Of a stretch of DNA of 64,000 nucleotides, positions 3,624 through 45,680 are shown piece by piece; positions within the stretch are counted from its first letter, which is position 1, and the number at the start of each line of letters is the position of its first letter. Origin of the DNA: an uncultured Clostridium sp. GTDB taxonomy: Bacteria; Bacillota; Clostridia; Christensenellales; CAG-138. The DNA lies in assembly GCA_900542285.1 (NCBI GenBank), contig UQNF01000003.1, positions 15,585 through 79,584 on the forward strand, in the 5' to 3' direction. The notes under the pieces are model-generated. The model was not told the origin of the DNA and ran no database searches. It worked only from the letters and a program-made list of their open reading frames with translations. The position numbers were made by a program, and so were the translations under genes.

Positions 3624-4359
3624 TATTCTATCAATATTCCCTGAAATGTTCTCAAGTGTCCTTTCTGCCAGCATGCTCGGGCGTGCTGCCGCAAAGGGCA
3701 TTCTTGAGTTTCACACGCATAATATCAGGGATTATTCCGAAAGCAAGCACAAGAATACCGACGATTATCCATTCGGCGGCGGTGCAGGCATGGTCATGAT
3801 GGCTCAGCCCATATTCGACTGTATTTCCGCTATCGAAAATGAAGTCGGTGATGGCAAAAGCATCCGTCGCATCGTAATGACTCCAAGGGGCAGAAGGCTT
3901 ACTCCCGAGATAGCAATGGAGCTTGCAAGGGAGGAAAACATTCTTATACTGGCTGGTCATTACGAAGGGATAGACGAAAGGGTTATGGAGCTTATCGACG
4001 ATGAGATATCTATCGGCGACTATGTTCTGACGGGAGGAGAACTCCCTGCAATGGTGCTTATTGACTGCCTGTCCAGATTCATACCCGGAGTGCTTGGCAG
4101 CAGCGAATCAACGGAGGATGAGAGCTTTTCCGGCTCGGGATTGCTCGAATATCCGCAGTACACAAGGCCTTCGGTTTTTCGAGGCAGGGAAGTTCCTGCT
4201 GTATTATTGAACGGCAATCATGCCGAGATCAATAAGTGGCGCAGACAGCAGGCACTTATAAAAACAAAAGCCATGCGCCCGGATCTCCTTGAAACCGCCG
4301 AGCTTACCAAAAAGGACATTGAGTTTCTTAAAGGCTTGGATGAGATCGAAGGAGAATAA
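3613..4359 (+). CDS. trmD: tRNA (guanine37-N1)-methyltransferase TrmD
   Basis: 248 aa. MRIDILSIFPEMF..., DDYPFGGGAGMVM, LTGGELPAMVLIDC. Overlaps the rimM stop. Confidence 0.96.
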   Translation: MRIDILSIFPEMFSSVLSASMLGRAAAKGILEFHTHNIRDYSESKHKNTDDYPFGGGAGMVMMAQPIFDCISAIENEVGDGKSIRRIVMTPRGRRLTPEIAMELAREENILILAGHYEGIDERVMELIDDEISIGDYVLTGGELPAMVLIDCLSRFIPGVLGSSESTEDESFSGSGLLEYPQYTRPSVFRGREVPAVLLNGNHAEINKWRRQQALIKTKAMRPDLLETAELTKKDIEFLKGLDEIEGE

Positions 4360-4505: not shown

Positions 4506-4859
4506 ATGTCAGAAATCATCAGAGAGCTCGAAAAAGAGCAGCTTCGCACCGACCTCCCCAAGCTCGAGATTGGCGACACCGTTCGTGTATTCGTTAAGGT
4601 TGTCGAGGGCAATCACGAGAGGCTTCAGAACTTCGAGGGAATCGTTATTAAGATGCAGGGCGGCGGCATCCGCAAGTCCTTCACCGTTCGCCGTATCAGC
4701 TACGGTATCGGCGTTGAGAGGACCTTCCCCTACAACAGCCCCCGCATTGGCCGTATCGAGGTCGTTCGTCATGGTGTTGTTCGCAGGGCTAAGCTGTACT
4801 ACCTCCGCGAGAGGACAGGTAAGGCCGCAAAGATCAAGGAACGCATCGTAAAGAAGTAA
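4506..4859 (+). CDS. rplS: 50S ribosomal protein L19
   Basis: [47 protein letters not shown] at 4506 follows RBS AAGGAG. Confidence 0.96.
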
Positions 4860-4875
4860 TCCGCCTAATGCTGGC

Positions 4876-4910
4876 AATGCTCCCCGCACACCGTGTTGGG
4901 GAGCATTTTC
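4876..4910 (+). terminator. Rho-independent terminator/attenuator after rplS
   Basis: 10-bp stem AATGCTCCCC/GGGGAGCATT followed by TTTC. The T-tract is short, so readthrough into rbgA is likely. Confidence 0.55.
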
Positions 4911-4913
4911 TAA

Positions 4914-5834
4914 ATGAATTCAACAAATAAAAACAGTATGCAAACGATTAACTGGTATCCCGGCCATATGGCAAAGGCAAGACGAATGCTTGAAGATAAT
5001 GTCAAGCTCGTCGATATGATAATTGAGATAGTGGATGCGCGCGCTCCGCTTGCCTGCCGCAACCCTGATTTTGAAGCGCTTTTCGTGAATAAGCTCCGCG
5101 TTGTCGTTCTCAATAAAAGCGATCTATCGTCCAAGACACAGAACAAGGCGTGGATAGAGTATTTCAGAAAGCAGGGAATTACCGCTGTCGAACTCGTTTC
5201 CACAAATCCTTCAATGCGAAAGAATGCGGTCGCGCTGATTGAACGAACCGGTGCAGAGACAGTTAGAAGGTATAAGGAAAAGGGAATCAACAAGACGCTG
5301 CGAGCAATGATAGTCGGAGTTCCAAATGTAGGAAAATCCACCTTCATCAATCGAATAGCCGGCACTGCCAAGGCGCAGGTGGGCGACAGGCCCGGAGTAA
5401 CCAAGAGCAAGCAGTGGGTCAAGATAACGGATTTTTTGGAGCTGATGGATACTCCCGGCTTGCTGTGGGGAAAGCTTGACAATGAGATTTTGGCAAAGCA
5501 TCTTGCGTATATCGGTTCGATCAGGGACGATATTCTTGATGTGGAAGAGCTCGCTGCGCTGCTTCTATATGACCTGATGAAGATATGTCCCGACCAACTG
5601 ATCGCAAGGTACAAAAAACTGACGCCGGAGATGAATTCCCCGGAGGAACTGCTTGACGGAGTATGCAGAAGCAGGGGATTCATATTGTCGGGAGGAGTGC
5701 TCGATACGGAAAGGGCCGCAAGGATCGTGCTGGATGAATACAGGGCAGGGAAGATTGCCGCAATCGCGCTTGAAAACCCCGATGATGACTTTGCATCAAA
5801 GCCAGACGAGGTAACCGATCATGCCGACTGCTGA
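4914..5834 (+). CDS. rbgA: Ribosome biogenesis GTPase A (YlqF/RbgA)
   Basis: INWYPGHMAKARR, circularly permuted GTPase motifs (NKSDL ... GVPNVGKST). Start is ambiguous: ATG 4914 or ATG 4938. Confidence 0.9.
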   Translation: MNSTNKNSMQTINWYPGHMAKARRMLEDNVKLVDMIIEIVDARAPLACRNPDFEALFVNKLRVVVLNKSDLSSKTQNKAWIEYFRKQGITAVELVSTNPSMRKNAVALIERTGAETVRRYKEKGINKTLRAMIVGVPNVGKSTFINRIAGTAKAQVGDRPGVTKSKQWVKITDFLELMDTPGLLWGKLDNEILAKHLAYIGSIRDDILDVEELAALLLYDLMKICPDQLIARYKKLTPEMNSPEELLDGVCRSRGFILSGGVLDTERAARIVLDEYRAGKIAAIALENPDDDFASKPDEVTDHADC

Positions 5835-36021: not shown

Positions 36022-36053
36022 AAAAAAGCAGAGGCTCGAAACCTCTGCTTTTA
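36022..36053. terminator. Bidirectional rho-independent terminator (ends pcp and the minus-strand fibre operon)
   Basis: AAAAA-AGCAGAGG-CTCGAAA-CCTCTGCT-TTTT. 8-bp stem flanked by an A-run and a T-run. Confidence 0.85.
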
Positions 36054-36367: not shown

Positions 36368-37099
36368 TTATTTCTCCACTGAACTGCGTTTTCTGCTCTT
36401 TTTTAGCAGCACTGCGCAGCCTATCACAGCGCCCAATGCGACGAGCACAACGCCGAAATCAAAGCGGCTTGCTTCGCCGGTAGGGGGAGCAGGAGGCGCG
36501 GAGGGTTCCTCTGAGGGCTCCTCTGAGGGCTCAGAGGAAGGTTCCTCGGAAGGCTCAGGAGAGGGTTCGGGAGTTGGGGTTGGAGGAATGAACTCTTCCT
36601 CAACGCTGAACACCCAGGTAATGGTTCCCACTGCGTTCTGGAACTCATCGCCCATTTCAAGAGAGGCATTGAGCGACAGATCGAGCGTGATCTCAGCGCC
36701 GGCGGCGAATTCGCCAAGCAGAACGCCGTAGCCATCATCATCCGCAAGGCCGCCCTGTTCGTTGGCCGGGGCATTGAATATCTCGGATTCGCCGTTATTG
36801 ACCGTTAGGGTGAAATACGAAAGGAATTCCGCATCCGCAGGGTCAACAGGCAGTGCCTTGAGATAGATGCCAACGGTCATATCGCTCGAATTGCGAATCA
36901 GGATCTGCTGCTCGAGAGAATCACCGGGCATAACACCCTTAAAATTGGAGAACAGGTCGGTCGATTCTGGGGTGAATACGAACTCGTTCTCTTCGCCGGT
37001 GAAATCCACGGTCGGAAGCCCATCGGCAAAGGCGTTGGCGCATGCAAGCGCAAGGCAGGCGACAAGCATCAGAGCAACAAGCTTAAATTTTTTTCTCAT
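36368..37099 (-). CDS. TasA/camelysin-like protein with Sec signal peptide, PEPS-rich linker and C-terminal APPTG + TM + basic-tail sorting signal
   Basis: Signal peptide ends ANAFA|DG. FKGVMPGDSLEQQILIRNSSD..VGIYLKA is TasA-like (compare VMPGDTIAKVVKIENTGD in the 40976-41527 product). The C-terminus reads PPAPPTGEASRFDFGVVLVALGAVIGCAVLLKKSRKRS. Confidence 0.65.
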   Translation of the reverse strand: MRKKFKLVALMLVACLALACANAFADGLPTVDFTGEENEFVFTPESTDLFSNFKGVMPGDSLEQQILIRNSSDMTVGIYLKALPVDPADAEFLSYFTLTVNNGESEIFNAPANEQGGLADDDGYGVLLGEFAAGAEITLDLSLNASLEMGDEFQNAVGTITWVFSVEEEFIPPTPTPEPSPEPSEEPSSEPSEEPSEEPSAPPAPPTGEASRFDFGVVLVALGAVIGCAVLLKKSRKRSSVEK

Positions 37100-37101
37100 A
37101 C

Positions 37102-37695
37102 TCAGTTACCTCCTTGTTCCGTCTTGGCGAGTGTGCCATCCGTACAAACTACTACCGGCCATACCGTTTCGACTGTCGAAGTCGGGAGCGACTGGACGGC
37201 GGAGGCGATGACCTGAAGCTCAAAATCGTACTCGTGCTCTCCATCTTTTACGGTACAGCTCTTGATAAGAATGGGAGTGTATTCGTCCGGCTTGATAAAG
37301 GTCTTGCAGTAGTAGAAACCATCAGTACCTTTGAACCAGAATTGATTGAAATCATCTCCCAAAGTGATGTTGCAATCATCGAGGTAAGCAGGCTTTGCGG
37401 CAATATTGCCCTCATCGTCCACCCATGCCGGAACCAGCGCAACGCGGATATACGCAGGAACGTTACCGGTGTTCTTTATTCTGACATTCTGCTTGGTTGT
37501 ACCATTGAACGTCTCATCAACCTGTATGGTAACTTCACCCGGAGTGAACTCGTTTACAACAGGTCCGGGAGTGCTGATAAGCCATGCCAAGCTGCCGGAT
37601 ACGGCCGCACAGGCGAGAATACAGACGCAGAATGCTATCAGAAACGGCTTGATGGACCGTTTGGGCTTGCGCGAATAGGTTTTAATCTGCCTCAT
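37102..37695 (-). CDS. SipW-class signal peptide protein, TasA-like paralog
   Basis: N-terminus ...SGSLAWLISTPGPVVNEFTPGEVTIQVDE, then VRIKNTGNVPAYIRVALV. Its start overlaps the stop of the vWA gene by 14 nt. Confidence 0.7.
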   Translation of the reverse strand: MRQIKTYSRKPKRSIKPFLIAFCVCILACAAVSGSLAWLISTPGPVVNEFTPGEVTIQVDETFNGTTKQNVRIKNTGNVPAYIRVALVPAWVDDEGNIAAKPAYLDDCNITLGDDFNQFWFKGTDGFYYCKTFIKPDEYTPILIKSCTVKDGEHEYDFELQVIASAVQSLPTSTVETVWPVVVCTDGTLAKTEQGGN

Positions 37696-40600
37696 CGGTC
37701 AAGTCCTCCTTTCCGGGGATGATAGCGGGCATTGGGCTGTATTCCGGACTGCCATTGGAGTCAAAGACGTTCGTTGCCACTGCTTCATCGCTGAGCCAGA
37801 ACTCGTTGTTAAGTCTGTTGGTCATTGTGACGATTGCTTCTTCGGGGCTTTCGGCGGGAAGCGTTGCTAAGACGCCATTTTGTTCTTCAACAAGCTCATA
37901 TCTCCAGGACCATTTGGTGTCCTCGCTGACGGTGTAGGTGCCGACAGGAAGGCCTACAATCGTACGGCTGCCTGCACCGACAATGAGAACATTGTAATCG
38001 GCTGGGCTAAGTATAGTGACCCCTTCTTTCGTAGTAAGTCCGGGGTAACTGACCGTGAAGATAAAGCTCTGTTCCGCATCCAGAAGCCGGCTGCCTTCTG
38101 CGATAGCCTTTTTAACCGTCAATGAGCAGGTGTTGACATGCAGTATGAACTTACACGGAACTGCACCTTCTGTACCGAAGTCACAGCCTGAGTGCTCACA
38201 TTCATCATGCACAAAGCTCACATGGCGATCAATATCGGTTTCGCCGATCTTTACCGATACATTGACCGGGATATCATCGGGAACGACGATATAGCCTTTC
38301 TTAATGGCATTCTCGGGCGTTGTGGCATAGTCAAGCTTAAGCGTGGGTGCGCTGCCCTCCATAGTCACCGAACTGTCCACAGTTTCGCCATGCTTCCAAG
38401 CAACGGGCTTATAGTTTGCCGTATAATCCGTATACTGTCCGCCATACCAGACCTCGCTGTCAGCGAAGGTGAGGACGGGCTTAAAGACATTGATTGTGCC
38501 TTCGTCGTAGCCTGACTGCTGAGTTGCAAGAGTCCCGGGTAGGAGATTACCATCTTTGTCATAACCGGTATCGGGCTTAGGCGATACCGTAACGGTGATG
38601 GAATATGTTGTGTCATCGGACAGTTCGTCAATGCCATCTGTGACAGCATGGCCGCTTGCATCCTTGATAACAACGCTTATGTTCACATACTCCGTTTGCC
38701 AGGTTTCAAGACCGTAGTTATTATCTGCCGCTGCCAGATTAAGTGAGACGCCTCCGACGGTGACGGTCGCATCTTCCTTGAGCTGCGCTGCGGTCAGGCC
38801 GTTCAGCAGATATACGTTCTTGTCGCTTGCGGTTACGGAAACTTCGCCAATCGGAACGTTTACCTCGGGACGCTCAAATGTCAACACCGGGTTAATGGCG
38901 CTACTATTCTCGTACACGCCGGCATTCGCATTGGTGTACACATTGTTGCCGCCAAGGAAGCCGGCTTTCGGGCTGACGGTGAATCTTATCACCAGCTTGT
39001 GGCCGTGGTAAGTAACTTCACCGTTATTGGTTACAGTTCCTACATAGTGTTCGGCAAAGTCAAAGTTGGTAACACTAACCTGACTGCCAAATATACTAGC
39101 CGTTGCGCCCATTGGATCATCTTGATTCATCGAATCAACGTTTCTTCTCCATGTGTATTTATTATCGCCGTTCTTACCGATGCAGGCATAGGTCTTAAGC
39201 GTAATATCTTCAGCCGTTGTGCCTTCCGGTAAAGTGAATGCAGGGGCGATGATGTCCCTGATGACGGTATGTTCGCTCAGGGTAGTGGAGGAACCACCGG
39301 TTTCTATCTGTTGGCTGATCTTCTCAAAGATATCGTTGAGAGCATCAGCGTCGCCTGCGGAAAGATAGTAGCTTGGGCTCTGCACATTACCGTTGTTGGA
39401 AGACAGATTCTGCATGAACCAGTTGGCTTTTTGGGTATCGTTTCCGCTTGAGCTACCTGCGCTTGTTGCATCTGCACCATCAAATATACCAACGGTATAA
39501 ACAGTTGCACCATAGGTGCTTTTTGCAGTGCTTCCTTGCGATATGGCAGCATTTCCTACGGTGCTGTTATATCTTCCGGTGCCAGGCAAGCCATCAGTGA
39601 AAACGATTACGACACGATTTCGCTTTGTCCCTTCTTCAATCTTGTTGACATTCAGAATACCGTTTGCCATCTCCATTCCCAGATCAGTGAAGGTTCCGCC
39701 ATATGCGTCCAAAGCTTTAATTGAGTTCGCAATATTGTTTTTCCCTATTGATGTGTTCATGCTTTGCAACGCATTGCTATACTGAGCAATTGCAGAGTTA
39801 CCATAAGTGTATTGTGTAGCACCGACAAATACTTCTGTGTTTTCATATTTGTCTTCATTGTATTCTGTTCCACTTGATGCAAAGCCAACAACTGCAATAC
39901 GGTGATTAACATCGTCTTCCGTTCCCATCTGACCATCCTTGCCCTTTGCTTTCACAGCTACCGCATTGGCAAATGCAGTTACAGCATTCTTCAATGCTTC
40001 AAGGCGAGTGGTTTCCACAGCAGTCCTCAGATATAGTTTATTATGGATTTCTGGAACAGTGTCCGGTCTATCTGATTCATATGAACCTTCTGACCATGAA
40101 TATGTATACTTAAAGTATCCTCTAATAAGGAAAACAGTCCAAATCCAATCCCTGCTTACTGATACCTGAGCATAACTACCATCATCAAGCTTATAAAAGA
40201 GATTATTTTGCTGATAGTAGTAGTCCGAGTTCGTCATATCGAAATAACTATCATATTTATAACTGCTGGTGAAGCTATCAGCCATACTTCCCGACTGGTC
40301 AAGCACCAGAACGATATCGGTGGGGATATACTCCGTAACCTCGGTGATGACCTTTTCACCGGTTGCATAGGCCTCCAGAGTGATGGTATAGGTACCGTCT
40401 CCGTTCGCAACGGCGTTTTTCGTTATCTCCATACCGCTGTCACCATTTCCGCTGCCCGTATCGTCGCCGGATACGGATGCGCCGCGAGTGGGCGAGCCGC
40501 AAACCGGGTCGAGCAGGGGAGCGACATTGGTGAAGTTGACAGTTGTATAAACATACTCAAGGTCGCCATCCTCTTCGGCGGCGGCGATAAGCTCGTTTAT

Positions 40601-40936
40601 ATGCTCTTCAAGCGCGGCATACTGCTCCTCGGTGAGAGAATCGATAAATGCGCTCAGCTGTTCGTCGGTGAGCCCTTCAAGCAGCGCGTGAGCCTCCGCA
40701 AAGGTCGCGGCTGCCATAAGGTCATTGTACAGTGCGGCATAATCGGGAGCTTCCACCGGGGTATCGGTATCGGACGGAGCGGGAGTTACTGACGGTGCAG
40801 AGGTTGGACTGCCCGAATTCGCTTGGCTGCCCATATTGGCGATGCCGCCTTCGTTCAGCGCGACAATGGCTGAGCCCATGGGCGTAATAAGGCATAAGCA
40901 GAGAAGCAGTGACAATAGCCCTTTAAGTATCTTCAT
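37682..40936 (-). CDS. Large secreted vWA (MIDAS) domain protein, adhesin-like, no recognisable cell-wall anchor
   Basis: 1084 aa. Signal peptide. DIVLVLDQSGSM (DxSxS at 40286-40300) and VVIVFTDGLPG. C-terminal beta-rich modules (e.g. GTYTVSEDTKWSWRYEL). Ends ...GKEDLTDEAD with no LPxTG or TM segment. Confidence 0.8.
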   Translation of the reverse strand: MKILKGLLSLLLCLCLITPMGSAIVALNEGGIANMGSQANSGSPTSAPSVTPAPSDTDTPVEAPDYAALYNDLMAAATFAEAHALLEGLTDEQLSAFIDSLTEEQYAALEEHINELIAAAEEDGDLEYVYTTVNFTNVAPLLDPVCGSPTRGASVSGDDTGSGNGDSGMEITKNAVANGDGTYTITLEAYATGEKVITEVTEYIPTDIVLVLDQSGSMADSFTSSYKYDSYFDMTNSDYYYQQNNLFYKLDDGSYAQVSVSRDWIWTVFLIRGYFKYTYSWSEGSYESDRPDTVPEIHNKLYLRTAVETTRLEALKNAVTAFANAVAVKAKGKDGQMGTEDDVNHRIAVVGFASSGTEYNEDKYENTEVFVGATQYTYGNSAIAQYSNALQSMNTSIGKNNIANSIKALDAYGGTFTDLGMEMANGILNVNKIEEGTKRNRVVIVFTDGLPGTGRYNSTVGNAAISQGSTAKSTYGATVYTVGIFDGADATSAGSSSGNDTQKANWFMQNLSSNNGNVQSPSYYLSAGDADALNDIFEKISQQIETGGSSTTLSEHTVIRDIIAPAFTLPEGTTAEDITLKTYACIGKNGDNKYTWRRNVDSMNQDDPMGATASIFGSQVSVTNFDFAEHYVGTVTNNGEVTYHGHKLVIRFTVSPKAGFLGGNNVYTNANAGVYENSSAINPVLTFERPEVNVPIGEVSVTASDKNVYLLNGLTAAQLKEDATVTVGGVSLNLAAADNNYGLETWQTEYVNISVVIKDASGHAVTDGIDELSDDTTYSITVTVSPKPDTGYDKDGNLLPGTLATQQSGYDEGTINVFKPVLTFADSEVWYGGQYTDYTANYKPVAWKHGETVDSSVTMEGSAPTLKLDYATTPENAIKKGYIVVPDDIPVNVSVKIGETDIDRHVSFVHDECEHSGCDFGTEGAVPCKFILHVNTCSLTVKKAIAEGSRLLDAEQSFIFTVSYPGLTTKEGVTILSPADYNVLIVGAGSRTIVGLPVGTYTVSEDTKWSWRYELVEEQNGVLATLPAESPEEAIVTMTNRLNNEFWLSDEAVATNVFDSNGSPEYSPMPAIIPGKEDLTDEAD

Positions 40937-40975
40937 GTGCTATACCTCCTTTTCTAAAGATTTTTTGTGAAATGC

Positions 40976-41527
40976 TCACTCTGCGGGCCAGCCCTGCGCA
41001 GCCAGAACGGTTGCGCCGTTGTTTGCATACTGTACAGCCTCTGCGTCAACATCGATGCTCAGAACCGCATCCATATAGGAGTTGCCAAGGCTGATGTCGA
41101 ATGCTACGCTTGAGAACAGCTCGTTGGTGAAGGCACCGCCGTCAACGGGGCTGTTGTAGTAATAGTAGCCGTCCGAATAGGTCCAATCGGTGGTGTTGTA
41201 ATCAAGGGTGATGTCGTCGGTTGACAGCGCCTGCTGGTTGGCATCGGTGCAGCTCATGGTGACCTTTACACGGATCCATGCGGTATTGTCGCCGGTGTTC
41301 TCAATCTTAACGACCTTTGCGATGGTGTCGCCGGGCATAACACCGGTCTGATCCACAAAGGGATCGCCGTTTTCGTCGGTCTCATGGATAGCTATCCCGA
41401 GATTGCCGGCGGTTATCTGATTGTTTGCAGTATCCTGCGCGGTGAAGTAGGCGAGGGAGCCGAGCGCAAGGATGGATACGCAGGCGATAATTGCCGCAAG
41501 AATCGTAATCTTCTTCTTGATATTCAT
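40976..41527 (-). CDS. TasA/camelysin (peptidase M73-like) family protein with SipW-class signal peptide
   Basis: ...LGSLAYFTAQDTANNQITAGNLGIAIHE..., GVMPGDTIAKVVKIENTGDNTAWIRVKV. Confidence 0.8.
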   Translation of the reverse strand: MNIKKKITILAAIIACVSILALGSLAYFTAQDTANNQITAGNLGIAIHETDENGDPFVDQTGVMPGDTIAKVVKIENTGDNTAWIRVKVTMSCTDANQQALSTDDITLDYNTTDWTYSDGYYYYNSPVDGGAFTNELFSSVAFDISLGNSYMDAVLSIDVDAEAVQYANNGATVLAAQGWPAE

Positions 41528-41646
41528 ATTCTTTGCCTTTCTTTTTTAATTTATTTGCTATTTGCGGCTTTTGTGCCGCTGCTCACATATACCGCCACCC
41601 CGGCCGCTTTTGCGGCCAGGGCAACGTTAGTGAGGTGGAGGGATTA

Positions 41647-42426
41647 TTAAGCCCAGGGATTTGCGGGAAGACCGGAAGCGGCGAATGCTGCTTCTGCACT
41701 ATCAAAACCGGCAGCCTGAACAGCCTGAACGAATACAGGAATCTCTACGCCTTCGGAGAGATCGTAGTTAATGACTTCAGGACCGTTGCCCCAATCTACT
41801 GTGTAGACGGGATTATTAGTGACTGAATCAATGTGCATATCAACAGTCTTGTCAAGGTAGAATCCGATGTATGCAGGAGTTGCGGTAACTACATCTTTTT
41901 CAAGAGCGGTAGTATAGGTGCGGCTATAGATTTTGTATTCAACGTCATTAATTACTACTTGGTTGGCAACAACTATCTCATCAGTCCACTGGCCTTCTGC
42001 GCAGGAATCTCCGTTAAAGTTCCAATGAAGGACATCATAGCGAGGTGCGTTGGGGGTCTGACCATTCTGAAGAGCGGTAGGAACAGCAACAAAGATGCGT
42101 ACATATGCATCAGATTCGCCGGTGTTCTTGATGGTCATGATTTTATCAACATAGTTCTCGGCAGTGGGAAGTGTAACACCACCAACAGTTTCCTGTTCGC
42201 CCTGTGCGGAACCAACGATAGGCATCAGAACCTTATTCTGTTCAAAGGGTACAAGTGCAGAGCTGTCTGCGTTTCTCTGCCGCTCGATAAGCTGAACCTT
42301 AACTCCGCCAACGGTGAAAACATTGGTTTCTTGATCGGTAGCGGTGAAATAAGCGATGGACATGCCGACGATGGTGACGGCAAGAACGGCAACGGCGAGG
42401 CCGATTGCGAGTAGTTTCTTCTTCAT
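41647..42426 (-). CDS. SipW-class signal peptide protein, TasA-like paralog
   Basis: ...GMSIAYFTATDQETNVFTVGGVKVQLIE..., IMTIKNTGESDAYVRIFVAV. Confidence 0.75.
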   Translation of the reverse strand: MKKKLLAIGLAVAVLAVTIVGMSIAYFTATDQETNVFTVGGVKVQLIERQRNADSSALVPFEQNKVLMPIVGSAQGEQETVGGVTLPTAENYVDKIMTIKNTGESDAYVRIFVAVPTALQNGQTPNAPRYDVLHWNFNGDSCAEGQWTDEIVVANQVVINDVEYKIYSRTYTTALEKDVVTATPAYIGFYLDKTVDMHIDSVTNNPVYTVDWGNGPEVINYDLSEGVEIPVFVQAVQAAGFDSAEAAFAASGLPANPWA

Positions 42427-42495
42427 AAAACAAATTCTCCTTAATAATTTATTGTTTTTGTTTCTTTGTTAGTTGGTTGCTGCGTGATCGATAAA

Positions 42496-43137
42496 TCACT
42501 GAGCATTATATGCTGCCCATGCTGCTTCCGGAGTTTGGAAGCCATCAGCCTGGATAGCGTAAGCATTGACGGTGATGGTCATGCCTTCAATCGTCCTAAG
42601 CTGTGCATTATTGATGGTACCGGGAACGGTGATGCTGTCGAACAGAGCATCGAGTGCTACATCTGCAGTAGGAGCAGCAACGGTTTCCTTATACCAGAAC
42701 TCATAGGTGCGGGTATTTGCTGAGGCATCCTCGGTGTTGCCCTTGCAGATCCAATTTGTACTATCGTAGCCTTTGAAAATACTAGTTAGATCTGCGCCAG
42801 TGGGAGCAAAGATAGCGTCAAGCTCACGAGATTTACTGAAGGTGACGGTCATCTTGATGTAGGAGCTTTCGCTGCCGCTCAAAACGGTGACTGTCGGATC
42901 CTTGGTGTAGGTGTGTCCGGGAATAAGCTTGTAGCTGTTAGCCTTGACACGATCAGCATCTTGCACTGGTGTACCATCAAGATTCACTTTAGCTTCGTCA
43001 AGCTTGATCTGTACGTTACCGACGGTGAAGGTGTTGACAACTCTGTCGGTGCTTGTCAGGTAGGCAAGCGTCATACCTACTGCAAAGGCGCAAACCAGCA
43101 CCATTGCAACTGACATGATTAGAAGTTTCTTCTTCAT
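42496..43137 (-). CDS. SipW-class signal peptide protein, TasA-like paralog
   Basis: MKKKLLIMSVAMVLVCAFAVGMTLAYLTSTDRVVNTFTVGNVQIKLDE. ATG 43137 follows GGAAAGGAAG; the track ORF to 43176 is an extension. Confidence 0.75.
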   Translation of the reverse strand: MKKKLLIMSVAMVLVCAFAVGMTLAYLTSTDRVVNTFTVGNVQIKLDEAKVNLDGTPVQDADRVKANSYKLIPGHTYTKDPTVTVLSGSESSYIKMTVTFSKSRELDAIFAPTGADLTSIFKGYDSTNWICKGNTEDASANTRTYEFWYKETVAAPTADVALDALFDSITVPGTINNAQLRTIEGMTITVNAYAIQADGFQTPEAAWAAYNAQ

Positions 43138-43188
43138 GTTCTTCCTTTCCGGGCGCGCTCTGCGGCGCCCATGCATTATATATGGGAT

Positions 43189-43797
43189 TTATATTAAGCC
43201 CGAAGGCTCTTCCCCGGAATTGGTTGATTCGGCGCCGTCCCTGACGCCGCGCTTTTTGCTCTTGTCCATGCCCTTGATAATATCGGGTACGAACAGAAGC
43301 AGGACGAGCACCACCGCGCCGCAAATCCCGACATACATGCCGGGCGGCGAGGAGAGATAATTGGAAACATATCCAAGATAGGGGATGGAGAACACGGGAC
43401 GGCCGAGAAGATTCTTAAAATAAACCGGCTTACCGTCCGGCGCATCGTTTGCATCGCCCTTGGTGTAGAAAAGCTCGTTCTCCGCATCGATATCGATAAC
43501 ACGGTGAGTGGCGATGACAAGGTCTTCGTTCAGAACGAAGGTTATCGGGTCGCCGACCCTTATCTGCTCCGCGGGAACACCCTTAACATATATGAGTGAA
43601 CCGACATGATATGTCGGCTCCATACTGCCGCTGAGTACGCAGAATGGGCGCAGGCCAAACAGCCTGACGCCGGCCAGAAGTACCGCAATCAGCACCACGA
43701 CACATGTTAGAATGGTTGTGAATACGTTCAGAACAATTTGAACAGGGCTCTTCTTTTCTTTATTCTTTTTTTTCTTTATGTCTGTATCTTGCTCCAT
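43189..43797 (-). CDS. sipW: SipW-type (ER/archaeal-type, S26B) signal peptidase I
   Basis: N-terminal TM helix, SGSMEP (catalytic Ser), ATHRVIDI (His), YTKGDAND, and a C-terminal TM helix. Confidence 0.88.
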   Translation of the reverse strand: MEQDTDIKKKKNKEKKSPVQIVLNVFTTILTCVVVLIAVLLAGVRLFGLRPFCVLSGSMEPTYHVGSLIYVKGVPAEQIRVGDPITFVLNEDLVIATHRVIDIDAENELFYTKGDANDAPDGKPVYFKNLLGRPVFSIPYLGYVSNYLSSPPGMYVGICGAVVLVLLLFVPDIIKGMDKSKKRGVRDGAESTNSGEEPSGLI

Positions 43798-43910
43798 GAT
43801 ACCAAGCTCCTTACTGCCTACTGGGTGATAAATCAGGCAAATATTGGCAGTATTACGATTAACACATGTATACTTGCGCGTCTATCCAATATATCTTACG
43901 CCGAGTTGTG

Positions 43911-43930
43911 CATAAAAGTACACTTTTATG
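43911..43930. repeat. Left hix-like recombination site (palindromic half-sites, core AC)
   Basis: CATAAAAGT-AC-ACTTTTATG: perfect 9-bp inverted half-sites around a non-palindromic AC core. Confidence 0.6.
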
Positions 43931-44056
43931 TATTGACGAACAATGGATAGGTGTAGTATAATTCCGCTGAAAACAGCCGGGAGACGAGTTAAAAACTGGA
44001 CTGTTTTCCACCGTTAAGGTGAATTTGCGTGTGCCGAAGTGTTGTGCATAAAAGTG
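43921..44056. other. Putative 136-bp invertible promoter segment (between the two core dinucleotides)
   Basis: Bounded by a perfect 13-bp inverted repeat: GTACACTTTTATG (43918-43930) and CATAAAAGTGTAC (44047-44059). It contains the only strong promoter in the sipW-recombinase intergenic region. Confidence 0.6.
43933..43962 (+). promoter_or_regulatory. Near-consensus sigma-70 promoter inside the invertible segment, currently pointing away from sipW
   Basis: TTGACG (43933-43938), 18-nt spacer, TATAAT (43957-43962) on the + strand. Confidence 0.65.
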
Positions 44057-44066
44057 TACCTTTTTG
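44047..44066. repeat. Right hix-like recombination site (core GT, the reverse complement of the left core)
   Basis: CATAAAAGT-GT-ACCTTTTTG. Its reverse complement, CAAAAAGGT-AC-ACTTTTATG, aligns with the left site. Confidence 0.6.
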
Positions 44067-44101
44067 CACAAAGCAAAAATATATTTTAATTTTTCACCGC
44101 C

Positions 44102-44707
44102 TCAATCAAACGTTCCGTACTCTCTTAGCCATTTATAGAGCAGAGAACGGCTTATTCCAAGGCTTTCGGCGACCTCTGTGCTGGTACAGCCACGCTTCTT
44201 CCACTGCGCCGCTATCTCGTCGAATCCTTCTGGCTTCGGTATGCTTTCCCTGCCAAGCTTCACTCCTCGAAGCTTCGCAGCGGCAATTCCCTCTGCCTGA
44301 CGCTTGCGAATGTTTTCGCGTTCTGTCTGAGCGACATAGCTCAATATCTGCAAAACGAGATTCGATATGAATACGCCGGTCAGATCCTTATCACGCTGAC
44401 GCGTATCCAACAATGGCATGTCCAGAACAACTATATCTGCTTGTTTTTCCGATGTAATTATCTTCCATTGCTCGATAATCTCCTCATAGTTTCGTCCAAG
44501 CCTGTCGATAGAAAGTATGAATACCGCATCTCCGCTTCGGAGGCGGCGCATCATGCGCTTGTACTGCGGCCGTAAAAAATCCTTACCGCTCTGCTTGTCG
44601 ATGTAGATCATTTCCTTCTCGATACCGGCCTCGTGCATCGCAAGAAGCTGGCGTGATTCATTCTGTTCCTTGGTCGAAACCCGAATGTACCCATAGTTTT
44701 TGTTCAT
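44102..44707 (-). CDS. Small serine recombinase (resolvase/invertase family) with C-terminal HTH
   Basis: 201 aa. YGYIRVSTKEQNESRQ (catalytic Ser), ILSIDRLGRN, C-terminal HTH GCTSTEVAESLGISRSLLYKWL. Strong RBS AGGAGGAA. Confidence 0.9.
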   Translation of the reverse strand: MNKNYGYIRVSTKEQNESRQLLAMHEAGIEKEMIYIDKQSGKDFLRPQYKRMMRRLRSGDAVFILSIDRLGRNYEEIIEQWKIITSEKQADIVVLDMPLLDTRQRDKDLTGVFISNLVLQILSYVAQTERENIRKRQAEGIAAAKLRGVKLGRESIPKPEGFDEIAAQWKKRGCTSTEVAESLGISRSLLYKWLREYGTFD

Positions 44708-44989
44708 TGTGAAATTCCTCCTGGTTCTGCTTTTGTGATGTGATGATAAAAACGCAGTGTGATGCAGCGTTTATATTACTAAGCATAACATGGCTGTTGT
44801 ATAATTCATCCATTCAGGCCAATTTCATATATAAAGCAGAAGCGAACTGCAAAGTGGGAGAAAATACACGAATCGACAGAATTCGGAATAGCATTGAAAT
44901 TGTCTTGCTGTATTTGCCGGAATATGGAAGAATTATCGAGGTGCAGCAGCGATGGTGAATCGAATCGGCCCCAAATGCTGTTATATGTA

Positions 44990-45017
44990 ATAAAAAGCAG
45001 AGGCGCTTAACCTCTGC
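44990..45017 (-). terminator. Rho-independent terminator after trkA
   Basis: The minus strand reads GGCAGAGGTTAAGCGCCTCTGCTTTTT. 7-bp stem GCAGAGG/CCTCTGC. Confidence 0.75.
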
Positions 45018-45035
45018 CAAAATATAGTAATATGA

Positions 45036-45680
45036 TTATCCAATCAGTTTCTTGAAGGCGTCATTTCCGCCAAGAACGATGATATGATCGTCCGGGTTAA
45101 ACATATAGTTGGCGTCTGCAGCAATAAGCTTGCCTTCGGGAGTTTTTGCCGCAACAACATTAACTCCGTAGCGTTTGCGGACATCGATAATCTGAATGGT
45201 CTTTCCAAACCATTTGGATGGCGCGCGCAGCTCGAACATCGCATATTCATCCGACAGCATAAAATAGTCAAAGACCGAGTCATTGCTTATGGTTTTTGCA
45301 AGCCTTTGAGCCATATCCTTTTCGGGGAATACTATCTTATCTGCTCCGTTCTTGAGAAAGAACTTCGCCTGAACCTCCGTCGAAGCTATCGCAATAACAT
45401 AGGGACAGCCAAGCTCCTTGAGAAGGTCAACGATTTGGAGACTGTCCTGAAAGTCCTCCGGTATGCAGACTATCGCTGCGTCAAATTCATCAACGCCGAA
45501 TGTCATAAGGACGTCACGGCGCGTACAATCGCCGATTTTTGCACTGGACACATATTCAACAAGATCTGAGACCTTATTTTCACTTTCGTCCACCAGCATT
45601 ATTTCACATCCGGCATTATACAGATAGCGGCAAATGAAATGGCCGAATTTACCTGCGCCGATCACCAAAAATGATTTCAT
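45036..45680 (-). CDS. trkA: Trk/Ktr potassium uptake system NAD-binding subunit
   Basis: MKSFLVIGAGKFGHF Rossmann motif, plus a C-terminal TrkA-C domain. Confidence 0.88.
   Translation of the reverse strand: MKSFLVIGAGKFGHFICRYLYNAGCEIMLVDESENKVSDLVEYVSSAKIGDCTRRDVLMTFGVDEFDAAIVCIPEDFQDSLQIVDLLKELGCPYVIAIASTEVQAKFFLKNGADKIVFPEKDMAQRLAKTISNDSVFDYFMLSDEYAMFELRAPSKWFGKTIQIIDVRKRYGVNVVAAKTPEGKLIAADANYMFNPDDHIIVLGGNDAFKKLIG

Follow-up and report, generated by a model that had tools for sequence, protein, structure and literature searches.

The 64,000-nucleotide stretch of DNA considered here in its entirety (the window) comes from an uncultured Clostridium sp. (contig UQNF01000003.1, positions 15,585 to 79,584). 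Its 304-bp intergenic region at 43798-44101 separates two minus-strand genes, one for a serine recombinase and the other for a SipW-type signal peptidase, and contains a 136-bp segment (43921-44056, measured core to core) that is found in both orientations in independent assemblies. Inversion of this segment occurs in nature, a statement that we regard as virtually certain. The reading that we favor, with a probability of about 0.8, is that the segment acts as an invertible promoter (an inverton), flipped by a recombinase, and that it turns a SipW/TasA-like surface-fiber operon on and off.

Both orientations of the segment in natural assemblies

The first-pass annotation of the window had predicted the inversion, proposing that the reverse complement of 43921-44056 would represent the alternative allele, and this in silico product is reproduced by 17 natural contigs. 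It matches 15 full-length metagenome contigs with 0-1 mismatch in the 304 bp, the exception among these being the diverged strain L096 (16 mismatches in 304 bp), and the inverted allele is also present in L091 and in the partial (truncated) contig L092; here and below, L numbers designate the contigs and loci compared. The same-species contigs were gathered by the presence of the identical recombinase, of a 99.5%-identical variant or of the same SipW, together with one DNA scan of JGI metagenomes that contributed only 2 matches. The identical 201-aa recombinase protein occurs on 111 contigs. The reference-genome scan, which covers one genome per species, held no genome of the window's own species, only relatives at 53-63% recombinase identity. 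Among 24 independent assemblies, 17 are inverted, with the promoter described below facing sipW, and 7 are window-like, the latter including the window's own source contig (L094, 0 differences). The window had been described as apparently sequenced in the OFF state; its promoter does point away from sipW, and the ON assemblies are the majority (17/24).

No deletion products were found in the compared assemblies, in which the length of the intergenic region is always 304 bp. Any boundary inside the perfect repeat (43918-43930 and 44047-44059) yields an identical inversion product. The positions at which the outer arms differ from their partners (T43913 and A43917) stay put in both natural alleles, and, with both of these variants fixed, the exchange must be confined to the perfect 13-bp repeat, which holds the proposed core. 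For many of the contigs the assembly name implies a k of 115-141, which exceeds the 25-nt repeat. Because k-mers of this size span the repeat, the orientation is read-supported and an assembly artifact is unlikely. By the distances between their flanking sequences the assemblies fall into at least three haplotype groups, two of which hold both orientations: group A is ON in L001, L004, L007, L095 and others and OFF in L006, the window, L099 and L100, while group B is OFF in L002 and L098 and ON in L102. Since both orientations are found inside two haplotype groups, the segment has been flipped repeatedly.

Several contigs, from metagenomes and from metagenome-assembled genomes (MAGs), either stop at or just past a site or end in inverted duplications (L024 at 4622-4984, L059, L050, L080, L011, L019 and L092). 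These inverted duplications at contig ends span the inverton and have arms of 81 nt and 64 nt. Such breaks and fold-backs are what an assembler would make of a read set that contains both orientations.

The inverted repeat and the recombination sites

Two sites of about 20 bp, 136 bp apart and sharing a 13-bp inverted repeat, had been noted earlier in the intergenic region. All of their coordinates check, and the repeat proves to be longer than thought, with 25-nt arms. As read from the sequence, the left site is CATAAAAGT-AC-ACTTTTATG (43911-43930) and the right site CATAAAAGT-GT-ACCTTTTTG (44047-44066); their start-to-start spacing is 136 bp according to the repeat finder (family D1). The perfect 13-bp inverted repeat pairs GTACACTTTTATG (43918-43930) with CATAAAAGTGTAC (44047-44059). 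The repeat finder places it within a sipW-proximal left arm (43906-43930, 25 nt) and a recombinase-proximal right arm (44047-44071, 25 nt), which are complementary at 23 of 25 positions and enclose 116 nt between them. Each full site is about 28 bp long, with two 13-nt half-sites and a 2-bp core between them: the full left site (43907-43934) consists of half-site TGTGCATAAAAGT, core AC (43920-43921) and half-site ACTTTTATGTATT, the full right site (44043-44070) of half-site TGTGCATAAAAGT, core GT (44056-44057) and half-site ACCTTTTTGCACA. The right site is near-palindromic, 11 of 13 positions agreeing between its own half-sites.

The pair of arms is the top-ranked inverted repeat of the whole 64-kb window, and the site pattern, with up to 3 mismatches allowed, has 2 occurrences in the window against 0.01 expected from shuffles; on these two counts the site pair is not due to chance. 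A scan of the window with this pattern (the recombinase target can also be written GCATAAAAGT-NN-ACTTTTATGC) found no further target sites elsewhere in the 64 kb. The two sites also score as a 26-nt direct repeat (D1), because the left site is itself palindromic, and the inverted and direct readings can be distinguished by the cores and the outer flanks only. The cores of these dimer-type sites had been said to be reverse complements of each other, and so they are, AC on one side and GT on the other; the same rule applies to all 27 of the homologous site pairs (27/27) described below.

The promoter and the probable consequence of the flip

The segment carries a sigma-70-type promoter, TTGACG-N18-TATAAT (43933-43962, plus strand), with an 11/12 match to the consensus. 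It had been singled out as the only strong promoter of the intergenic region, and we find it to be the sole match of at least 10/12 in the larger interval 43500-45100. When OFF, as in the window, it points away from sipW and toward the recombinase gene, which it would enter at the 3′ end; no terminator lies between the two. Flipping moves it to the minus strand at 44015-44044, which leaves about 210 nt between it and the sipW ATG. This position, which the first-pass annotation had predicted, is exactly that of the natural ON allele L001, where the promoter occupies 3664-3693 (window 44044-44015, minus strand) and the sipW ATG is at 3911.

No other minus-strand promoter match of at least 10/12 exists ahead of sipW or inside the operon. 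The first-pass annotation had found no comparably good fixed promoter on this strand between 43798 and 43917; that there is no fixed promoter is true for strong matches, but not for weak ones: a 9/12 match, TTGAGG-N16-TATATT (44078-44105, minus strand), lies outside the segment, between the recombinase stop and the right site. There is no terminator between the recombinase gene and sipW. On the strength of the consensus matches and of the family-wide promoter enrichment reported below, the promoter is predicted to be active and to be the main promoter of the operon, and it is probable that the orientation of the segment sets the expression of the operon.

The leader that the ON allele would produce has no Rfam match to a regulatory RNA at E up to 1. 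Its predicted fold is stable (z = -4.4), for the most part owing to the left site, which turns into a perfect palindrome in this orientation; the resulting hairpin was considered as a terminator and rejected, no U-tract following it. An imperfect hairpin in the middle of the segment, GAAAACAG...CTGTTTTC (43965-44010; 3700-3740 in the ON leader of L001), adds to the stability of the leader. It has no Rfam match and, like the first hairpin, is no terminator.

The mechanism that we propose is as follows. Dimers of the 201-aa serine recombinase would bind both of the ~28-bp sites, and the sites would synapse. Staggered double-strand cuts of 2 nt would be made at AC (43920-43921) and GT (44056-44057), the subunits would rotate by 180 degrees, and religation would follow. 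As the two cores are reverse-complementary, inversion of the 136-bp segment would be the only productive outcome. In the OFF state of the window the promoter would fire toward the recombinase gene and antisense to it, as follows from the geometry. In the ON state it would stand beside the recombinase-proximal site, and its transcript would pass through a leader of ~210 nt into sipW and on through the ~8-kb operon to the terminator at 36024-36052. We would predict that switching takes place within clonal populations at an appreciable rate, and that the antisense transcription of the OFF state affects the expression of the recombinase.

The recombinase and its relations

The gene adjoining the right site, first described as a 201-aa member of the resolvase/invertase family, does encode a small serine recombinase of this length (44102-44707, minus strand; PF00239 at 102 bits). 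The gene is not part of the segment; it shares the strand of sipW and precedes it in the direction of transcription. The catalytic motifs YIRVST (with Ser11) and SIDRLGRN are intact, and there are matches to a C-terminal helix-turn-helix (HTH) at residues 165-199 that are below their cut-offs. Comparison with solved structures gave Sin/Tn552 Bin3 (E 8.7e-25), Tn3 resolvase (2.1e-21), gamma-delta resolvase (8.8e-20) and Gin (1.8e-14). The label "Hin-type" that the system had been given is thus apt as a mechanistic analogy, but not as a family assignment: the enzyme is nearer to Sin, Tn3 and gamma-delta than to Gin, and its gene is outside the segment. Membership of the Mpi family (NCBIfam NF009949) was also rejected, the score being 44 bits against a cut-off of 272.

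Firmicute plasmids encode "recombinase family proteins" that are ~52% identical to the recombinase of the window. Two of these plasmid genes have a single crossover-type palindrome 150-180 bp upstream, with an AAAAGT-NN-ACTTTT design. The two palindromes, CGTAAAAGT-AC-ACTTTTACG and CGTAAATGT-GT-ACTTTTACG, are located in the Staphylococcus aureus plasmid pM083782_1 (L105, 1318-1343) and in a Bacillus plasmid (L106, about 1360-1390), and they are followed by extra TTCGTAAA half-sites in a res-like layout. This suggests that the chromosomal invertons derive from resolvase systems. The enzyme of the window would then appear to be of resolvase lineage, acting as an invertase on two bare crossover-type sites and working much like Hin or Mpi while belonging to neither family. 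That it is this adjacent recombinase which is responsible for the inversion seems to us highly probable.

Small serine recombinases have been reported to mark defense genes (PMC13552941). A tie between those enzymes and the present one was considered and rejected: the bait EF_B0058 of pTEF2 is only 33% identical to the recombinase of the window, and it sits 54 nt from its type IV restriction gene with no site pair there. The defense-gene association is not explained by this inverton family and concerns a different subfamily.

The same module in related genomes

A scan of one genome per species yielded 80 loci whose recombinases are 53-63% identical to that of the window; nearly all are from Clostridia, with some from Erysipelotrichia and others. 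Searching these loci with a half-site weight matrix identified site pairs, 27 in number including that of the window, whose consensus is GGCAAAAAAGT-NN-ACTTTTTTGCC (half-site GGCAAAAAAGT). All 27 lie within 4 kb of a homologous recombinase, and 24 of them begin no more than about 170 nt after the recombinase stop, most within 70 nt. The spacing of the pairs is 93-200 bp, apart from one of 527 bp. In all 27 the two cores are mutually reverse-complementary (20 GT/AC, 2 AG/CT, 1 AA/TT and 4 palindromic AT/AT). The pairs with asymmetric cores comprise 23 in inverted and 0 in direct orientation, and wherever a core is changed, its partner is changed to fit. With palindromic half-sites, the relative orientation is set by the core, and cores that covary in this manner look like the pattern expected of serine-recombinase inversion sites. 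Promoters are greatly enriched in the enclosed segments: an 11/12 match is found in 10 of the 27, compared to 0.24 expected from shuffles, and a match of at least 10/12 in 16 of the 27, compared to 2.4 expected.

A comparison of related genomes for the two orientations had been among the checks proposed for the window, and both are seen for several homologous segments (L016 versus L022; L026 and L051 versus L031, L042 and L062; L066 versus L060 and L070). The genes that follow these segments are varied, including BspA-type leucine-rich repeat (LRR) proteins, ResIII/HA helicases, a Ser/Thr kinase, a GGDEF cyclase (L020), DUF6591 and a dehydrogenase. A promoter that is antisense into the recombinase gene when OFF is a geometry shared by nearly all of the members in which the recombinase precedes the switch. 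In a rough neighbor-joining tree the inverton-bearing recombinases are spread over the chromosomal clade. We offer tentatively, and at somewhat less than even odds, the broader idea that these are widespread and portable phase-variation cassettes of gut Clostridia, apparently undescribed, that combine a Sin-like recombinase with a 3′ promoter inverton of 90-200 bp and varied cargos, and have neither res accessory sites nor a Fis enhancer.

Some of the relatives depart from the common layout. In two Lachnospiraceae (L016 at 307-465 and L022 at 300-458) the module has a second layout, in which the site pair is ahead of a GT2 glycosyltransferase gene and 3.5 kb upstream of the recombinase; the segment is in opposite orientations in the two genomes. 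In the cultured Lentihominibacter hominis NSJ-24 (L039, 4588-4790) the recombinase is followed by three sites, two of them direct (AAGT-AG-ACTTTT near 4597 and 4639) and one inverted (AAAGT-CT-GCTTTT near 4771), an arrangement that may allow alternative inversions. The cargo in this case is an open reading frame (ORF) of more than 1200 codons with a VWA-like region, which runs to the end of the 8.5-kb locus. The segments of L036 (4662-4780), L037 (2354-2472) and L075 (3316-3422) contain a terminator-like hairpin with a T run, for example GCACCCTTTTCGGGTGCTTTTTTGCG, and no promoter; they could be invertible terminators. The site core in L036 and L037 is the palindromic AT, and a palindromic core should not favor inversion over deletion. 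Finally, the 527-bp inverton of L021 (4664-5214), upstream of a BspA-type LRR protein, has a promoter-like site and also a tRNA-like gene (5027-5103, minus strand) that ARAGORN assigns to Tyr with the unusual anticodon ATA.

Alternative explanations

Four other explanations of these observations deserve consideration. The simplest, that the palindromes are transcription-factor operators and that no DNA rearrangement takes place, has in its favor that palindromes flanking a promoter can be operators and that the left palindrome also gives the 26-nt direct repeat; it is directly contradicted by the 17 natural inverted alleles, and we give it practically no credence. It could also be that a rare historical inversion became fixed in different strains, in which case the two alleles would be a structural polymorphism and not active phase variation. 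Such a view can appeal to the nature of the evidence, which consists of assembly consensus orientations with no within-sample mixture demonstrated. Against it are the presence of both orientations within at least two closely related flank haplotype groups, the junctions that are base-perfect in every case, the intact and strongly conserved recombinase beside the segment, the occurrence of the module in both orientations in several other species, and the MAG contigs that break or fold back at homologous invertons (L024, L059, L050 and L080, as well as L092). Moreover, in our own judgment repeats of 25 nt seem too short for efficient homologous recombination. All told, we consider a purely historical inversion to be quite unlikely.

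Two further possibilities accept that the segment inverts. One is that the inversion is the work of a recombinase encoded elsewhere, perhaps a RecV-like tyrosine recombinase, and that the neighboring gene is unrelated, for example a mobile-element remnant. The genome visible to us is 64 kb and global invertases that act in trans are known (Mpi, RecV), but a site pair and a homologous serine recombinase occur together in 27 loci from many genera, usually 3-100 nt after the stop; the sites are built as a serine-recombinase crossover site would be, with two inverted half-sites flanking a 2-bp core; and the 52%-identical plasmid relatives carry the AAAAGT-NN-ACTTTT palindrome in their res-like region. 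An enzyme acting from a distance is thus very improbable. The other possibility is that the inversion mainly controls the recombinase itself, by antisense or convergent transcription, or else upstream read-through, with the operon depending on other promoters. This would be consistent with the promoter of the window, which faces the 3′ end of the recombinase gene across a stretch that has no terminator, with the weak fixed promoter-like site upstream of the switch, and with the segments of L036, L037 and L075 that hold a terminator-like hairpin instead of a promoter. Nevertheless, no other promoter of at least 10/12 is to be found ahead of sipW or inside the operon, and the promoters of the homologous segments face the cargo in one of the two states across many unrelated cargos. 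The two effects are, in any case, compatible and not mutually exclusive. As an account of what the switch mainly does, control of the recombinase or of read-through seems to us unlikely.

There are, in addition, several points that weigh against a promoter switch of the fiber operon driven by the adjacent enzyme. Each assembly supplies a single consensus orientation, in which a mixture within the sample is not visible. The weak 9/12 match at 44105-44078, together with the lack of a terminator before sipW, could permit basal read-through in the OFF state, and the 18-bp spacer of the invertible promoter is suboptimal. The palindromic AT/AT core of four related loci means that core asymmetry cannot fully explain orientation across the family. 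Finally, a half-site scan of 43600-44400 found no accessory or enhancer half-sites beyond the four crossover half-sites, only weak 9/13 matches, which makes the activation of a resolvase-like enzyme on these two sites puzzling. Sin and beta recombinase use a nucleoid protein such as HU, and our guess is that a protein of this kind is a possible activator here.

The SipW/TasA-like fiber operon

The first gene of the operon, sipW (43189-43797, minus strand), encodes a SipW-type signal peptidase I (TIGR02228 at 105 bits against a cut-off of 51.85; PF10502) and has the ribosome-binding site AAGGAG 9 nt ahead of its ATG. The rest of the operon (36368-43176, minus strand) begins with genes for three TasA/camelysin-like proteins that have SipW-cognate signal peptides (42496-43176, 41647-42426 and 40976-41527, all minus strand). 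Then come a VWA-domain protein of 1084 aa (37682-40936, minus strand) and a 197-aa protein (37102-37695, minus strand) with a weak, below-cut-off match to the BsaA family. The 243-aa product of the last gene (36368-37099, minus strand) has a signal peptide and a Pro/Glu-rich linker as well as an APPTG motif, a hydrophobic stretch and the basic tail KKSRKRS, a combination that resembles a sortase-type cell-wall sorting signal; this protein may anchor the fiber. A terminator-like hairpin with a 13-bp stem followed by a T run (36024-36052, minus strand) ends the operon. The three proteins downstream of SipW match TIGR04088 at 24.8, 21.2 and 35.1 bits (cut-off 19), and one of them matches PF12389 at 35.8 bits. 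Two more specific models are below their cut-offs, the Bacillus SipW equivalog (99 versus 190) and the BsaA subfamily (53.9 versus 60).

The first two fiber-subunit genes (41647-43176, minus strand) are hypervariable between strains, as seen when L001-L005 and L096-L103 are compared downstream of sipW. Identity to the window proteins is 74-95% for Tas1 and 29-99% for Tas2, whereas TrkA, the recombinase and SipW are 98-100% identical on the same contigs; the called lengths lie between 226 and 233 aa, and these subunit genes are where many contigs break off. This pattern suggests diversifying selection or allele replacement acting on an exposed structure, as would be expected under immune or phage pressure. 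With regard to the neighborhood, a search for signs of horizontal transfer revealed no GC anomaly across 32-50 kb, and a small ORF between trkA and the recombinase gene (44740-44958, plus strand) has no family match and is probably spurious.

Comparison with known systems

The system shares with Hin/hix of Salmonella and with Gin, Cin and Pin a small serine recombinase with a C-terminal HTH and two inverted sites of ~26-28 bp that have A/T-rich half-sites and a 2-bp asymmetric core. As in Hin/hix, a promoter directed outward from the invertible segment would switch a surface-appendage operon. However, hin is inside its own segment of ~1 kb, whereas the recombinase gene here is outside a segment of 136 bp; the enzyme is nearer to Sin, Tn3 and gamma-delta (E 1e-25 to 1e-19) than to Gin (E 2e-14); and, in contrast to Hin and Gin, no enhancer-like element was found here and the half-site sequence is different (GCAAAAAAGT). 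Fis, the essential cofactor of Hin and Gin, is not known in Firmicutes. The capsular-polysaccharide invertons of Bacteroides fragilis, along with their recombinase Mpi, are similar in having a serine recombinase encoded outside short promoter-bearing segments, a gut commensal host, surface-structure cargo and no known dependence on Fis. Mpi is nonetheless a global enzyme with many distant invertons, whereas here there is one recombinase and one adjacent inverton (two sites in 64 kb), and the repeat motif is different. Sin, beta and the resolvases of Firmicute plasmids and transposons are the closest relatives in sequence and have the same type of crossover palindrome. The plasmid resolvases, however, have a single site upstream of the gene with res-like accessory repeats, in contrast to the two bare inverted sites downstream of the gene in the window, where inversion and not resolution is observed.

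In its position and host the switch recalls those of Clostridioides difficile that depend on RecV (cwpV, flgB, cmrRST and pdcB/pdcC), which are likewise short invertible regulatory segments before surface or signaling operons in a gut Clostridia-class bacterium; one of the relatives described here (L020) has a GGDEF gene under such control as well. RecV, by contrast, belongs to the tyrosine recombinases and serves several switches in trans (PMC7446863, PMC9286219), whereas the window has a cis-adjacent serine recombinase with different chemistry. As for the cargo, sipW-tasA of Bacillus and sipW-bsaA of Clostridium perfringens have the same plan, a SipW-type peptidase followed by TasA/camelysin/BsaA-like proteins with cognate signal peptides. 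The operon of the window is larger, with three or four subunit paralogs, a VWA protein and a putative anchored protein. The sipW-tasA and sipW-bsaA operons are regulated transcriptionally (SinR/AbrB/Spo0A), and we know of no report of DNA inversion for either.

Promoter inversion by serine invertases (Hin, Mpi) or by tyrosine recombinases (FimB/E, RecV) is a classical mechanism. Catalogues of invertons run to thousands of entries (PMC11892184, PMC11602134). Our literature search found nothing linking SipW/TasA-type fibers to DNA inversion; in the same literature the site strings occur only as unrelated primers, and there is no text mention of the motif. The recombinase/site family is not described in the searchable text of the inverton catalogues and reviews (PMC11892184, PMC11602134, PMC11868660), while the 2019 PhaseFinder tables may list similar loci. 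The mechanism class is therefore textbook, the SipW/TasA-like cargo is new, and the recombinase/site family seems not to have been described before.

Significance

The system poses a mechanistic question, namely what allows a resolvase-like enzyme to become active in inversion when it has just two isolated crossover sites to work on. Several carriers are cultured and amenable to experiments: Lentihominibacter hominis NSJ-24 (L039), Murimonas intestini DSM 26524 (L054, with its site pair at 4589/4693) and Lachnospiraceae bacterium A4 (L022). The site consensus, together with the assignment of recombinases to their sites, could help to annotate the invertons of Clostridia without read data. If the notion of a family of portable cassettes is true, antisense transcription in the OFF state could make the rate of switching dependent on the state of the switch. 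For the organism itself, the majority of ON alleles in gut assemblies hints that the fiber is used in vivo, and the favored reading would mean that an uncultured but common Clostridia species of the human gut varies a TasA-like surface fiber by DNA inversion.

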